64,000 nucleotides of DNA, from the NCBI GenBank assembly GCA_965242965.1, contig OZ251518.1, positions 1,568,001-1,632,000 of the forward strand, given 5' to 3'. The translations under genes and the position numbers were made by a program. The notes below the pieces were generated by a model, which saw only the letters and a list, made by a program, of their open reading frames with translations, was not told the origin of the DNA and searched no databases. Of this stretch, positions 782 to 63,268 are shown one piece after another. Within the stretch, counting starts at the first letter, position 1. The number at the start of each line of letters is the position of its first letter. The stretch is from Candidatus Poribacteria bacterium. GTDB taxonomy: Bacteria; Poribacteria; WGA-4E; WGA-3G.

Positions 782-1082
782 GAGGGTGTTTCATAAATCA
801 ATGTCTTCCCGTTAGGAGAGACCTCCCAGTCTCGATGCCCACCGTATCGGGACAAGGATGTCCCTCCTACCGGGCGCGCACCGGGCCCACCTCTGTAGTT
901 CGGGATCGCCTGATCCCGAATAGGTCAGGATCAGGCGATCCTGACCTACAGGGGTGAGGCGGTTTGAGAGCCAAACGCATGGCGAGGGACAGGCCCTCGC
1001 CCTACGTGAAGGGGAAGCGTTTTTTTCATCGTAGCGCGGGGGCCTGTCCCCCGCGACGTTGAGCGATTTATGAAACACCCTC
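782..1082. mobile_element. Modular MITE-like element, complete, REP-mosaic interior
   Basis: Ends GAGGGTGTTTCATAAATC / GATTTATGAAACACCCTC; interior modules C, F, D-pair, B, A; flanks TATTAAAT / ATTTAGAT (imperfect). Confidence 0.85.
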
Positions 1083-1344
1083 ATTTAGATTCCGAATTTC
1101 CTTGACAATTGCAAGGACAATAAGGTATCCTAATTGATGCAGAAAAGGCGAAGGGCACAGAAACGCGCTGAACAATTAAGCGCGCACAGGCCACAGCACG
1201 TCAAACGGCAGGCGCGAAACAAATCGTCCCTCCGATTTGATGTCCATTAGAAACGTGGGTAACCGTTGCTAACAATTGGCGGTTGGGAGCAGGTTTCCCG
1301 GTTTCTCGCGTCGCTTTTTCTGCTTTTTTGCCGTCCTCCTTTCC

Positions 1345-1701
1345 TCAGTGCACCTTAAAGGGCCCACCGCGCGGTTCCTCCGCGAGTTCGGGACGGGTAG
1401 AATCGAGGAACACCTCGTGGAGTTCCAGTTTGTTCGACTGGGTGAACGCCTCTTTGGGCAGCGAACCCGATTGCGCGTGCCCCTTCCGGAACGCCTCCGA
1501 GTTTACCCAGTTTTCAAAGTCTTTCCGCGATTCCCAGAGCGTGAAAACCACGTAAGGGTCACCGGTGTTGACAGGCCGCAAGACCTGGTTTGAGATAAAC
1601 CCCGGCATCCCATCAACAAGCCGCGCACGATTTCGGAACCGTTCTTCAAACGCGTCCTGATAGTCAGGCGCGACGTAAATGCGGTTTGCAACGGTTATCA
1701 T
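1345..1701 (-). CDS. Antibiotic biosynthesis monooxygenase family protein, IsdG/HmoA-like putative haem-degrading monooxygenase
   Basis: N-terminal Asn (VANRI), FEERF...PGF and WES..F..W..S.AF..GH motifs; Fur-like boxes directly upstream. Confidence 0.85.
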   Translation of the reverse strand: MITVANRIYVAPDYQDAFEERFRNRARLVDGMPGFISNQVLRPVNTGDPYVVFTLWESRKDFENWVNSEAFRKGHAQSGSLPKEAFTQSNKLELHEVFLDSTRPELAEEPRGGPFKVH

Positions 1702-1724
1702 AAACTTTCTCCTTTTAGGTTTAT

Positions 1725-1772
1725 GAAAATGAGTCTCATTATCATAATTAATTGAAAATGAATCTCATTATC
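1725..1772. promoter_or_regulatory. Two tandem Fur-box-like operators
   Basis: GAAAATGAGTCTCATTATC (1725-1743) and GAAAATGAATCTCATTATC (1754-1772), compared with the Fur consensus GATAATGATAATCATTATC. Confidence 0.8.
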
Positions 1773-1827
1773 AATTAACTAACGCTGATTGAACATGTTC
1801 CCGATTCGTATTCGGGAATATGTATAT

Positions 1828-1856
1828 ATGATACCACATGTATCAAAATTTGTCAA
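1828..1856 (-). promoter_or_regulatory. sigma70-type promoter
   Basis: Minus strand TTGACA-17 nt-TATCAT, upstream of the Fur-like boxes and the ABM gene. Confidence 0.65.
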
Positions 1857-61113: not shown

Positions 61114-61323
61114 TTTTCGGGCGGCGTTAGGAATCCGCTCCGACACTAAAACCAAATTCTTGGCTGTAGCGCGGGCTCGTCTGAAGTTCTGGCACGAATG
61201 CGAAACGTTCCCGAACAGGGCTCTTGCCCGACAGAGACGAGACGCATCAACCGATTTGGTATCACAAGGCGGGTAGGCGCGCTTTAGAAGCACGCGACTA
61301 CCCTAATGAAATAGGAGATTTTG

Positions 61324-62388
61324 ATGAACGATATTTCCTCTGGAAAATTGCGCGGCATCGTGAAACTCGCCGATGCGAATGGCCGATTCAAAATGATGGC
61401 GATCGACCAGCGTGGTTCCATGGTGCAGGCTCTCGCGGATGCCTTAAACAAGGAGAAAGCAGATGTCCAGTACGAAGATGTTGCCGCGCTCAAAACGTTG
61501 ATAACCTGCTCGCTTTCGCCGAATGCCACCGCTGTCCTCACGGATCCGATTTACGGGTATCCCTACTCTGTTGCAGAGATTCCGCGGGATGTCGCGTTGC
61601 TGTTAGCTTACGAAGAATCGGGTTATGTCAGCGAAGGCGTTAGCGAGAACGAACGGCTCTCCAATCCGATTGAAAATTGGACTATCGCCAAGGCGCAGCG
61701 TGCCGGTGCCGACGCGATTAAACTCCTCGCCTACTATCATCCCGATGCCTCCGAGGCGACACTCAAGCATCAGCAGGCGTTCGTGCAACACGTCGGCGAT
61801 GAGTGTGAAAAGCACGATTTGCCGTTTCTGTTAGAGTTAGTCAGTTACGCGCTGGAAGGCACCACCAAAAGCGTGGCATTCGCGCGGCAGAAACCGTCTC
61901 TGGTTATCCGCAGCGTTGAGGAATTCACGGCACCACGCTATAAGGTTGACATCCTGAAACTGGAATTCCCCGCCGACCTGAAATACACCGCCGATTATCA
62001 AAACAGGGGTTTCTATGCCGGCGATTCGGCATATACTCTCGCCGAAGTGAAGGATATCTGCCAGCGGTTAGACGCGGCATCGACATTGCCGTGGGTGATT
62101 CTGAGTGCAGGCGTGGATATTGAGGAATTCATCGAAAACGTTCACCTCGCCACCGAAGCGGGCGCGAGCGGATTCCTCTGTGGCAGAGCTATCTGGAAAG
62201 ACGCGGTGCAGTATTACCCCGATACCGAGGCAGTCAACCGCTTCCTCGCAGACGAGGCGACGACGAATTTCACGAACGCGAACGCGGCGGCAGAGAACGC
62301 GCGCCCGTGGTATAACCACCGCCAATTCGGCGGCGCAGAAAACGTGCAAATTGCCAAGCAGTCCGCGACGTGGTATCGGGACTATTAG
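61324..62388 (+). CDS. Class I aldolase, tagatose-1,6-bisphosphate aldolase (LacD) family
   Basis: AIDQRGS, LLLAYE.SGY, GADAIKLL.YY, DILKLEFP, PWVILSAGV, GFLCGRAIW. Confidence 0.88.
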   Translation: MNDISSGKLRGIVKLADANGRFKMMAIDQRGSMVQALADALNKEKADVQYEDVAALKTLITCSLSPNATAVLTDPIYGYPYSVAEIPRDVALLLAYEESGYVSEGVSENERLSNPIENWTIAKAQRAGADAIKLLAYYHPDASEATLKHQQAFVQHVGDECEKHDLPFLLELVSYALEGTTKSVAFARQKPSLVIRSVEEFTAPRYKVDILKLEFPADLKYTADYQNRGFYAGDSAYTLAEVKDICQRLDAASTLPWVILSAGVDIEEFIENVHLATEAGASGFLCGRAIWKDAVQYYPDTEAVNRFLADEATTNFTNANAAAENARPWYNHRQFGGAENVQIAKQSATWYRDY

Positions 62389-62438
62389 CCGATTTGTATT
62401 TCCTGGCGGGCGAGGGTTCGTCCCTCGCCTTGCCCCGG

Positions 62439-62930
62439 TTACGAAACCGCTTGCTCAATCTTCTCAAAGATTTTGCGTGCAATGCAGCGCGTTGTTTCCA
62501 CCGGCACCTCGCCGCCGACCTCGGCTACTAACACAACGACGGTATGCTGCACGAACAGGAAATTCGCACCAGCCTGCCAGACTACGTCACCGAGGCCGTG
62601 CTCCGCATTCGGTGCGGGTTGATAGTAGGAACGCTCTCCAGGGCGTGATGCCGATATTGGGGCGGACCGCGTTGAGAGCCGGGCTCTGCCTTCGTCAGCA
62701 GCGGTGCGCGCCGTAGCCGGTGAATCGAAAAACCAATAATGGAGCGCGACCTGCTGTGCAGCCGTGTGGTTTAACCACCATCTATCGCGCCAACCGAATT
62801 CGGCAACGGGCGGCTTGGGGGCCGTTGGAGAATAGAGTTCCTGTGAGGAAGCGAGGCGCGCAGCGAACGCCGATAAGTCAGCTGCCGTGAGTTGAATGGA
62901 TGCTAGCGTAAGGTTCATGTTTTTCATCAT
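62439..62930 (-). CDS. Hypothetical protein
   Basis: Open frame of ~163 aa with a TTGACA-17-TATGAT promoter-like sequence at its 5' end; no recognised family. Confidence 0.5.
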   Translation of the reverse strand: MMKNMNLTLASIQLTAADLSAFAARLASSQELYSPTAPKPPVAEFGWRDRWWLNHTAAQQVALHYWFFDSPATARTAADEGRARLSTRSAPISASRPGERSYYQPAPNAEHGLGDVVWQAGANFLFVQHTVVVLVAEVGGEVPVETTRCIARKIFEKIEQAVS

Positions 62931-63005
62931 AACACGCTCGCGAGAAAATGTCAAATTAATTTTTTGTGAAGATTCTCGCCGCATCCTCCAACTAACTAAC
63001 TAGCT

Positions 63006-63268
63006 AAGGGTGTTTCATAAATCGATGCACAAAGGTATCGGGCCCACCTCTGTAGTTCGAGATCGCCTGATCTCGAACGGGTCAGGATCAGGCGATCCTG
63101 ACCTACAGGGGTGATGCAGTCTCATAGCAAAACGCATGGCGAGGGACAGGCCCTCGCCCTACGTGAAGGGGCGGCGTTTTTTTCATCGTAGCGCGGGGCC
63201 CCTCGGATGCCACACGCGCATCCGAGCGGGTTTCCCCCGCGCCGTTGAGCGATATATGAAACACCCTC
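63006..63268. mobile_element. Modular MITE-like element, complete
   Basis: AAGGGTGTTTCATAAATC ... TATGAAACACCCTC; interior D-pair, B, loop-expanded A; closely related to 782-1082. Confidence 0.85.

Follow-up and report, generated by a model that had tools for sequence, protein, structure and literature searches.

The 64-kb stretch of Candidatus Poribacteria DNA analysed here (the window) carries short elements that are bounded by terminal inverted repeats (TIRs) and filled with REP hairpins, and the analysis confirmed that these elements are a real feature of the chromosome. Their shells are best explained, with a probability of about 0.75, as MITEs of an IS982-like DDE insertion sequence (IS), filled by separate RAYT-associated REPs and turned over in place. 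The shells are of DDE origin, bear target-site duplications (TSDs) and have empty sites in other genomes; the REPs are independent of them, a RAYT is present, and the elements have changed at shared sites. This change in place may be driven by RAYT-dependent REP proliferation together with recombination and deletion between REPs. Overall this is an unusual variation on repeat types already described, not a novel class of system.

The window contains 24 TIR ends at up to two mismatches, compared with 0.24 expected from shuffles (n = 100), none of which reached this number. All eight paired elements of an earlier note on this DNA were found again where it had placed them (Table 1), with ends GAGGGTGTTTCATA / TATGAAACACCCTC at 0-2 mismatches, and the three perfect flanking repeats that it gave (GTTTAATT, ATGTTGACT and GATAAAAT) are exact as written. 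The count of 24 means, therefore, that the note had missed eight solo ends (15083+, 23067-, 23107-, 28088-, 30596+, 36612-, 53407+ and 59897-). The 14-bp TIR occurs in 1,025 copies on the chromosome; 301 adjacent +/- pairs lie no more than 1500 bp apart, with a length peak at 250-300 bp, and 423 solo ends mark one-ended elements.

Table 1. TIR-bearing elements and segments of the window, with their counterparts in the genomes G001 and G002.
Feature	Position	Strand	Description
Paired shell, 301 bp	782..1082		TIR, C-like/F< doublet, D1>D2< doublet, B<, A>, TIR; 6-member family; flanks not identical
Paired shell, 283 bp	8796..9078		Perfect 8-bp TSD GTTTAATT; 3-member family
Paired shell, 557 bp	14283..14839		C and A REPs; about 212 bp left unparsed by the strict hairpin finder
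One-ended element	15083..15412	+	Left TIR (2 mismatches), then REP cluster cf, cf, D doublet, ab; adjoins Type ISP restriction-modification gene (15417-18545); G002 has 671 bp of other sequence in place of 14176-19501
REP cluster	22800..23120	-	Ends in two tandem right-type TIRs (23067-23080 and 23107-23120)
One-ended element	27861..28101	-	REP cluster ab, ab, D doublet; right TIR 28088-28101; right boundary of a 5.3-kb segment (22824-28101) absent from G002
One-ended element	30596..30991	+	Left TIR, then D doublet; ORF 28175-30610 runs into the TIR and takes its stop codon from it
Paired shell, 523 bp	31669..32191		9-bp flanking repeat ATGTTGACT; orthologous place in G002 without element
One-ended element	36315..36625	-	REP cluster and right TIR (1 mismatch); subterminal sequence similar to the IS left-end region; 23 bp at this place in G002
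Paired shell, 411 bp	42932..43342		Not in G001
Paired shell, 328 bp	45066..45393		Not in G001 or G002; flanks irregularly duplicated (CTAATTTCCT left and right, with ATCTAAAT in addition)
Paired shell, 600 bp	49793..50392		Perfect TSD GATAAAAT; clean empty site in G001 with a single AATAAAAT
6.5-kb segment	53407..59910		Inward-facing TIRs; flanks AACTAATT / AACTAAAT; REP clusters and a 1482-aa ORF with lamin-tail domain (54355-58803); IS left-end sequence and the first part of the transposase frame retained at the right end; absent from G001 and G002
Paired shell, 263 bp	63006..63268		6-member family; empty site in G001 with a single AACTAAAT

The REPs form a population that is separate from the shells and not specific to them. 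GTAG-footed, G+C-rich hairpins number 8,070 genome-wide, partly arranged as inverted doublets (570 of the D type), and the hairpin kit A-F of the earlier note is real, with exact chromosomal copies from 95 to 1552 per module (A 1552, B 1423, C 928, D1 95, D2 195, F 165; the A and B units are 25 nt long). When TIRs and REPs were grouped together at gaps of up to 150 nt, 5,292 REPs (about 65%) fell into some 1,700 clusters without any TIR, 1,781 into clusters with one TIR and 997 into clusters with at least two. The repeat clusters total about 450 kb of the 5.7-Mb genome, a load that is probably very high for a bacterium. A REP lies within 100 nt on the inner side of 822 of the 1,025 TIR ends (80%) and on the outer side of only 100, and the flanks of REPs are identical in kind near TIRs and far from them. 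The canonical array D>D<B<A> is present in 156 copies, 120 of them without a nearby TIR; as a counterpoint, the MITE may simply have captured this common array, or many of the clusters that lack a TIR could be MITEs in decay, as one shared site illustrates. REPs of the AB type occur 4,157 times in this genome, 937 and 536 times in two congeners and 0-2 times in 28 other relatives.

The interiors are hairpins of a RAYT-associated population, as was first proposed. An intact RAYT gene scores 120.5 bits against NF047646 (cut-off 80) and is single-copy in the genome by tblastn. The gene is flanked on both sides by D-type REPs (GTAGTTCGGGAGCGCCTGCTCCCGAA-type units only). The check for a RAYT gene flanked by the modules, which the earlier note had proposed, thus gave a positive result for the D type and a negative one for A, B, C and F, none of which flanks the gene, and the genome contains no second RAYT. 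Neither a RAYT nor a cognate transposase match lies inside the window, in agreement with the earlier note.

No two interiors are alike among the eight paired elements of the window, as had been claimed, but the claim does not extend to the whole genome. There, with a minimum coverage of 85% and a minimum identity of 80%, the 301 pairs fall into 221 clusters, of which the largest contains 53 elements about 267 bp long. Interiors without a sibling make up 208 of the 301. In the 53-member family the TIRs are conserved at 96%, the REP cores at 92-96% and the spacers at 79-89%. A TSD match of at least 7/8 accompanies 70 of the 208 singleton interiors versus 15 of 53 elements in the largest family, and TSD-flanked elements with unique interiors reach about 800 bp. 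The 237 distinct module grammars counted among the 301 elements overstate the diversity, because the hairpin finder is strict and the module orders are noisy.

Comparison with congeners revealed both the insertion of the elements and their later change. Clean empty sites with a single target copy were present for window elements (49793 and 63006 in G001), and a G001 element (at C48) has an empty site in the present genome. Three sites are filled in this genome as well as in G001, and at each of them the two copies differ in the order of modules, in the loss of a TIR or in both. Therefore, the interiors are rebuilt in place after insertion; empty alleles and same-site elements with different interiors were both among the checks proposed at the outset. 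The three sites lie on one contig of one congener, and their flanks are only about 85-90% identical, which implies a long time span between the copies. The rebuilding had been ascribed to an HUH enzyme or to recombination, and the RAYT, as such an enzyme, may contribute to it. A defined insertion signature or any other direct trace of the RAYT at work was not found, and for several of the observed changes recombination from REP to REP is at least as good an explanation.

It is quite possible, at somewhat less than even odds, that homologous or illegitimate recombination, gene conversion and slippage among near-identical REPs account for the change entirely, with the RAYT uninvolved. Such processes would explain why, in the G001 copy at C48, two REP stems are fused by a deletion, why the 5.3-kb segment has its left breakpoint exactly where a REP hairpin ends, and why TIRs are lost at the shared sites, where whole segments were replaced, not inserted. 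The genes inside TIR-bounded segments and the A, B, C and F REPs, which have no RAYT of their own, point in the same direction. However, the 1,552 and 1,423 exact 25-nt copies of A and B stand beside spacers that are only 79-89% conserved, and ongoing copying or homogenisation is therefore needed. Moreover, REP clusters are found at sites where G002 has no hairpin or only one (e.g., 21183-21852 and 33118-33540), and the intact single-copy RAYT has been retained.

An explanation in which the mosaics were assembled once, moved whole by the DDE enzyme through any two inward-facing TIRs and never altered later is unlikely. It would agree with the unique interiors of TSD-flanked elements as long as about 800 bp, with the absence from G001 of the whole 600-bp element at 49793 and with the small families of identical architecture, but the differing interiors or missing TIR at the three sites occupied in both genomes, together with the 208 of 301 interiors that have no sibling, do not. 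The 423 solo ends, too, lack degenerate partners, as best partners at up to three mismatches were found inside for 29 of them versus 43 in the outside control.

The conserved end of the shells is about 18 bp long (GAGGGTGTTTCATAAaTC) and thus longer than the 14-bp TIR, and the adjoining target bases have the palindromic consensus A-N-T-T-A-A-N-T. The flanks directly outside GAGGG are identical over 8/8 bp in 64 of the 301 pairs, compared with 0.52 in shuffled pairings, which settles the question, raised in the earlier note, of whether the TSDs exceed chance; identity over 7/8 bp occurs in 36 pairs, compared with 4.1. The longest flanking repeat measures 8 bp in 64 pairs, 9 bp in 27 and 10 bp in 9, and only about one third of the TIR pairs have kept a TSD. 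A possible assignment of the 8-bp repeats to the element instead of the target is argued against by the empty sites. The 18-mer at no more than one mismatch has 541 copies here versus 6 and 1 in the two congeners, in line with a burst in this lineage. The shells have the shared TIRs on many short non-coding copies, the TSD of fixed length and the empty orthologous sites with one target copy that characterise MITEs, and relatives carry an autonomous IS that matches them in TIR and in TSD length.

This parent IS, a search for which had also been suggested, is roughly 1.1 kb long and was located in other Poribacteria (loci L023 and L029-L035). Its four intact copies, at four loci, all have perfect 8-bp TSDs, and in one of them the right end is identical to the MITE TIR. 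The copy at 1868-2969 of L023 (1,102 bp) lies between two copies of the TSD AATTATAT; its TIRs are GAGGGTGGTGCATAAAT / GAGGGTGGTTCATAAATC, and it encodes a single ORF of 332 aa. The record titles of all 17 loci with the parent transposase are those of Poribacteria MAGs. The transposase (P0002) matches the Pfam domain DDE_Tnp_1_3 (PF13612) with 40.6 bits (cut-off 27). Among six IS models, its best score is 59.7 bits against the NCBIfam IS982 equivalog NF033520, which is under the cut-off of 130. By domain, element length of about 1 kb and single ORF, the parent thus appears closest to IS982 while remaining below the NCBIfam threshold. The Pfam scan of P0002 returned only DDE_Tnp_1_3 and DDE_Tnp_1 and no Transposase_mut (PF00872). 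The original attribution of the shells to a DDE enzyme is upheld by the TIRs, the 8-bp TSDs, the empty sites and the parent IS, and its IS256/Mutator assignment had to be abandoned.

All that survives of the parent IS in the present genome is a relic, in which a TIR, some 60 codons of the N terminus and part of the DDE region can be recognised; the genome contains no DDE_Tnp_1_3 match, no DDE_Tnp_1 match above the cut-off and no intact copy of the IS. The best pair of full-length shells is 96% identical, and most pairs are 80-92% identical. With no intact IS copy and no shell pair above 96%, the shell system is a fossil and not the active layer of mobility that had been assumed. The idea that the TIR merely marks the border of REP clusters and is processed by the RAYT system, with no DDE enzyme ever involved, fits the 80% of ends with REPs on their inner side and the lack of a DDE transposase in this genome, but it is extremely improbable. 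The parent IS and the TSDs already contradict it: the 8-bp TSDs are far above chance (IS200/IS605-type enzymes, RAYTs included, are not known to make any), and relatives carry an autonomous IS that shares both the TIR and the 8-bp TSD. In addition, a relic of this IS persists here, and about 1,700 REP clusters have no TIR.

As REP-filled MITEs, the shells are best read as non-autonomous derivatives of the roughly 1.1-kb IS982-like Poribacteria DDE IS. A P0002-type transposase would have recognised the TIR of about 18 bp and acted on DNA bounded by GAGGGTGTTTCATAAATC; it would have opened A-N-T-T-A-A-N-T targets with a stagger of 8 bp (sometimes 9-10), so that the element was pasted in and the target duplicated. 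A burst in this lineage probably produced the approximately 1,025 ends. The transposase was then lost, leaving only the relic, and the family is now an orphan fossil. Its cargo is GTAG REP hairpins and inverted, REPIN-like REP doublets from the genus-wide population of about 8,070 with a single RAYT. After insertion the interior turns over: REPs and other small repeats are probably gained, lost and swapped, and one or both TIRs sometimes erased, which would account for the unique interiors and the 423 one-ended elements.

More tentatively, the shell may have served as a vehicle, in which a DDE transposon spread RAYT-type REP arrays to hundreds of intergenic sites, genes were captured as well and the partnership outlived the transposase. 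REPs would then have a second route of spread, and two non-autonomous repeat systems would have lived in lasting partnership. The readiness of REPs to recombine could further allow the shell to acquire entire genes, and the TSD-flanked segment 53407-59910 with its lamin-tail-domain gene would be a bacterial counterpart of Pack-type MITEs. In this genome of a sponge symbiont, RAYT-type REPs sit physically inside DDE-type MITEs, although the two classes of small mobile DNA are usually investigated separately, and a congener shows the same insertion before and after rebuilding of its interior. The genome is thus a natural system for studying how REP arrays grow, shrink and erase neighbouring elements, whether REPs hitch-hike on transposons and to what extent the intergenic and accessory DNA of a symbiont, here with WD40, lamin-tail-domain and restriction-modification genes, has been so shaped. 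For annotation, one-ended as well as TIR-free REP clusters may in many cases have to be read as decayed MITEs.

Several known systems resemble the elements in part. BIMEs are intergenic REP mosaics of alternating orientation with recurring spacer motifs, and the intergenic mosaics described here likewise have a recurring array, D>D<B<A>. We know of no terminal inverted repeats, TSDs or IS parent in BIMEs, whereas all three are found here. BIMEs of enterobacteria are mentioned in PMC3184786 and PMC2817692. The pneumococcal BOX, RUP and SPRITE repeats bunch and insert into one another, as the small repeat families do here, and BOX is modular and of variable length; as described in PMC10969869, however, they are not of the REP/RAYT type, and they are not known to show replacement of interiors at shared sites within a TIR shell. 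[quoted passage not shown] The REP/REPIN-RAYT systems, as presented by Di Nocera (2013; PMC3733652) and Bertels and Rainey (2011; PMC3116915), share the GTAG foot, the thousands of copies, the inverted doublets, the single RAYT flanked by its own REPs and the restriction of REPs to a genus throughout which they occur. The present system differs in that a third of the REPs lie in clusters bounded by DDE-type TIRs with TSDs, and in that three REP superfamilies share a single RAYT although just one of the three borders the gene. The IS982-family-derived MITE of the Cardinium endosymbiont cOegib, about 240 bp long and non-coding, is similar in that its inverted repeats match an IS982-family IS and it spread in one host-associated lineage (PMC9769881). 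According to that report, Cardinium combines an intact parental IS with a fixed MITE body, whereas the shells described here combine a relic parent, whose transposase is below the NCBIfam IS982 cut-off, with a variable REP array.

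With up to 2 mismatches allowed, the terminal inverted repeat (TIR) motif GAGGGTGTTTCATA matched 24 times in the window versus 0.24 times in shuffles, a count that no shuffle out of 100 attained. The eight TIR pairs reported in the earlier note were recovered in place by the motif search of the window, and its three flanking direct repeats proved exact, but its inventory of ends had overlooked eight more solo ends. At the same threshold, the chromosome contig (5.66 Mb, with the window at 1568001-1632000; the genome has two contigs and 54% G+C) carries 1,025 evenly distributed ends, and adjacent inward-facing ones no more than 1500 bp apart form 301 pairs, whose lengths peak at 250-300 bp. 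In an alignment of 900 ends, conservation of the TIR extends to ~18 bp (GAGGGTGTTTCATAAaTC), and the bases outside it fit a.TTAA.T. When the 8 bases immediately beyond each end were compared, identical flanks (8/8) were found in 64 of the 301 pairs and 7/8 matches in 36, against 0.52 and 4.1 expected from random re-pairing. The duplications are therefore far above chance, a point on which the earlier note had let its proposal depend. The duplicated 8-mers have the palindromic consensus A-N-T-T-A-A-N-T, as expected from a symmetric staggered cut. The longest flanking repeat was 8 bp in 64 pairs, 9 bp in 27, and 10 bp in 9, in agreement with the proposed target-site duplication (TSD) of 8-9 bp; some of the 9-bp repeats are expected to be chance matches at the next base.

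An autonomous insertion sequence (IS) with the same TIR, which had been anticipated, is present in relatives, but not as an intact copy in this genome. The complete copy in a further Poribacteria genome, G016, has 1,102 bp and a single 332-aa ORF, ends in GAGGGTGGTGCATAAAT on the left and GAGGGTGGTTCATAAATC on the right, and is bordered on either side by AATTATAT. Its protein matches Pfam DDE_Tnp_1_3 with 40.6 bits (cut-off 27), and also DDE_Tnp_1. The best NCBIfam model is IS982, with 59.7 bits under the 130-bit cut-off; therefore, the transposase is named IS982-like and not an IS982 member. By these models, the DDE enzyme does not belong to the IS256/Mutator group. A scan of species-representative genomes gave 17 loci with the parent-type transposase, all in records titled as Candidatus or uncultured Poribacteria MAGs. 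Perfect 8-bp duplications (AATTATAT, AGTGAATT, ACCTAAAT, and ATATAACT) flank all four loci with both ends, and in one of them the right end is identical to the MITE TIR. In G006, a genome from another genus of the family, several contigs stop at equal distance inside the motif, as a collapsed multi-copy IS would produce. Six contigs of this genome (C13, C21, C27, C32, C54, and C108) end ~120-570 bp inside the IS, which is therefore multi-copy there and breaks the assembly. The protein search of this genome found no intact transposase copy, only a broken relic and a 35-residue scrap, and DDE_Tnp_1_3 had no match in it and DDE_Tnp_1 none above cut-off. In the relic, a TIR exactly of the MITE type survives together with the leader, ~60 codons of the N terminus, and a fragment surrounding the second catalytic Asp. 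Moreover, subterminal sequence resembling the IS left end occurs at ~40 MITE ends, which supports the descent of the MITEs from the IS. The 18-mer TIR (≤1 mismatch) is found 541 times in this genome versus 6 times and once in the two congeners, with a few occurrences in a different genus of the family. Full-length shells, that is, TIR-bounded elements, reach a maximum pairwise identity of 96%, and among the 416 full-length pairs most are at 80-92%; the MITE family is old and orphaned. An autonomous copy among long + to - TIR pairs (0.9-12 kb) was also considered and rejected, as flank identity was not above chance: among 578 such pairs, exact flanks occurred in 2 and 7/8 flanks in 9 (0.78 and 6.65 expected), and the two exact-flank pairs enclose no transposase but one ankyrin/peptidase-like and one Type ISP-like methylase gene.

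The earlier note had regarded a lack of empty alleles as an argument against its proposal, and clean empty sites were found in the congener G001 for the elements at 49793-50392 and 63006-63268. Three other elements of the window are absent from G001, from the second congener G002, or from both (see table). In the reverse case, a 198-bp MITE on contig C48 of G001 corresponds to a site that is empty in this genome. Metagenome contigs from four sponge or organism-coded runs over 42000-61000 break at every repeat and gave several occupied junctions; among the 15 joint matches listed for this interval, with contigs so broken, no empty allele was found. The same interval is 90-100% like contigs from sponge-metagenome runs of several studies, and metagenome depth spikes 100- to 1000-fold at its repeat clusters.

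A generic search for GTAG with a perfect or near-perfect hairpin yielded 8,070 REP units in total and three superfamilies, namely AB (loop CCTGT; 4,275 units), D (1,635), and CF (1,497). Their stem variants are compensatory, and nearly all D units come as inverted doublets (CTCTGTAG-hairpin-CGG-hairpin-CTACAGAG; 570 doublets). The Rfam scan found no family in the window. Paired shells contain 214 of the 1,552 exact A copies and 229 of the 1,423 exact B copies. Joint clustering of REPs and TIRs with gaps of ≤150 nt, in which cluster and grammar counts are approximate because the finder is strict, gave 1,708 TIR-free clusters with 5,292 REPs, 590 one-TIR clusters with 1,781, and 215 clusters having two or more TIRs with 997, over a summed span of ~450 kb. 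Short conserved REP flanks are alike whether a TIR is near or far. AB REPs number 4,157 here, 937 and 536 in the two congeners, and occur essentially nowhere else among the 31 genomes searched, which indicates a genus-wide REP population; the MITE burst, by contrast, is confined to this lineage. A REP lies within 100 nt of the TIR on the inner side of 822 of the 1,025 ends and on the outer side of only 100; the TIR therefore delimits a REP array. The largest family (53 members, 267-bp consensus) comprises a TIR, ~65 nt, a D1>D2< doublet, B<, A>, 13 nt, and a TIR (> and < give orientation), with conservation of 96% in the TIRs, 92-96% in the REP cores, and a lower 79-89% in the spacers. Past ~18 nt, the subterminal sequences are of many classes, and ~300 ends have a C-type REP at variable distance from the TIR. 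The array D>D<B<A> has 156 occurrences, 120 without a nearby TIR; either a common REP array was captured by the MITE, or TIRs were lost from many such arrays.

Sites occupied in two genomes bear on the loss of TIRs. G001 has only seven TIR ends, three of which, on its contig C102, lie at sites occupied here too. These three sites, all from one congener, indicate inheritance from a common ancestor, with coincidence ruled out. At site 1, the element has 863 bp and the TSD AGTTAATT in G001, and ~520 bp with another module order here; only the final ~100 nt are common to both, and other sequence stands in place of the left TIR's outer 11 nt. At site 2, the two genomes agree in the right TIR junction, but their interiors differ to as close as 5 nt from the TIR, and this genome no longer has the left TIR. 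At site 3, the junction is again equal, but this genome lacks the TIR along with its C REP, an A-type REP begins at the junction, and the remaining cluster is partly common to both genomes. The expectation that same-site elements would have different interiors thus held at 3/3 sites, through a differing interior or a lost TIR. These differences imply that interiors change after insertion and that TIRs get erased, which accounts for the 423 solo ends, and some TIR-free clusters are therefore decayed MITEs. A search for degenerate partner TIRs of the 423 solo ends gave no enrichment inside over outside. TSDs of at least 7/8 are retained equally often by singleton interiors (70/208) and by the 53-member family (15/53), which is consistent with change after insertion. 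The single TIR of G002 was rejected as evidence on interiors, being a relic of the IS left end in a rearranged location.

Two agents may be considered for this rebuilding. Active REP copying is favored by thousands of identical REPs beside diverged spacers, by places with REP clusters of 200-600 bp here and just 64-73 bp in G002, and by the maintenance of an intact RAYT. Recombination is favored by a deletion joining two REP stems, a breakpoint at a REP edge, the replacement of segments at shared sites 1 and 2, and the presence of genes within TIR-bounded segments. We infer that both contribute to interior change. In the profile search, Pfam Y1_Tnp was found at two places in the genome. The first holds an IS605-type element that has TnpB beside a broken TnpA. 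The second is the RAYT, of 157 aa (NF047646, 120.5 bits, cut-off 80), whose translation shows the HUH-like motif 'HLH' and the motif 'YCYQNP'. The flanking of a RAYT by modules A-F was confirmed for one type: GTAGTTCGGGAGCGCCTGCTCCCGAA-type (D) REP arrays border it on either side, and the flanking arrays are all D-type. No second RAYT was found in this genome by tblastn, and 17 of 31 related genomes carry above-cut-off RAYTs. The longest ORF that covers the RAYT extends upstream across the REP array, which reads there as repeated 'GAGAPEL / SSVGSERLLRT' peptides. The true RAYT is the final ~157 aa of this 368-aa ORF, and gene callers may over-extend it into the REP array.

Longer segments and other repeats are associated with the same clusters. 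The segment at 53407-59910 may represent a gene capture within a shell; no inner TIRs were found in it at ≤3 mismatches. A second MITE-like family, with ends AGGTCCTTTAGGTCC...TATAGACAT, is nested in REP clusters and present in G001 also, and its 15-mer has ~786 genome-wide matches at ≤1 mismatch. In addition, a 29-nt palindromic insert, CCCGCTCG.ATGCGCGTGTGGCAT.CGAG, in the loops of A/B REPs gives a two-storey hairpin and has ~609 copies genome-wide (≤3 mismatches).

Coordinates of the elements, junctions, genes, and repeats (window positions unless a locus or contig is named)
Feature	Location	Details
Element	31669	absent in G002
Element	42932	absent in G001
Element	45066	absent in G001 and G002
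Element	49793-50392	600 bp, TSD GATAAAAT; in G001 flanks run together over one AATAAAAT
Element	63006-63268	one AACTAAAT at the G001 site
Occupied metagenome junction	49580-49821	X6
Occupied metagenome junction	50366-50868	X8, X11
Occupied metagenome junction	52792-53435	X8
Occupied metagenome junction	59860/59861 onward	X11, X8
Segment, 6.5 kb	53407-59910	inward-facing TIRs, flanks AACTAATT / AACTAAAT; REP clusters and 1482-aa ORF with lamin-tail domain; absent from both congeners, one AACTAAAC at G001 site; right end retains IS left-end sequence and first transposase codons
Segment, 5.3 kb	22824-28101	two WD40-repeat genes (675, 690 aa); 126 bp instead in G002; right boundary falls exactly on the outer TIR edge at 28101, left boundary the end of a REP hairpin common to this genome and G002
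Type ISP restriction-modification gene	15417-18545	1042 aa; adjoins solo TIR 15083; segment missing from G002
Similar methylase (by eye), locus L005	G000:C1:188872-192792	1023-aa gene inside TIR pair, exact flanks AATAAATT (not above chance for such long pairs)
Left TIR in ORF 28175-30610	30596-30610	overlaps 3' end, giving last codons and TAA stop; counterpart in G002 has a different gene end
Second MITE-like family, examples	window 21490-21700; G000:C1:3014400-3014700; L052	
29-nt insert, example	21720-21790	
IS605-type element, locus L001	G000:C1:3123891-3127127	408-aa TnpB-like ORF; Y1 TnpA cut by two TGA codons
Longest ORF over RAYT	L002 1417-2523 (-)	368 aa
Complete parent IS (G016)	L023 1868-2969	
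IS relic, this genome	2371335-2371657	

Summarizing, the component parts of the system, BIME-type mosaics included, are already known. The cited papers describe IS-derived MITEs, IS982-derived ones among them (PMC9769881), GTAG REPs with RAYTs (PMC3733652, PMC2817692), BrickBuilt as a MITE whose internal repeat array varies (PMC4596501), and small repeats that form nests (PMC10969869). In the main texts searched, Poribacteria were not found joined with RAYT, REPIN, or MITE among the matches listed, nor was a DDE MITE with a RAYT-type REP-array body found among the matches listed in the literature searched. Relative to that literature, the combination of a REP-bodied DDE MITE with such a copy number and with interiors replaced at shared sites is apparently new.
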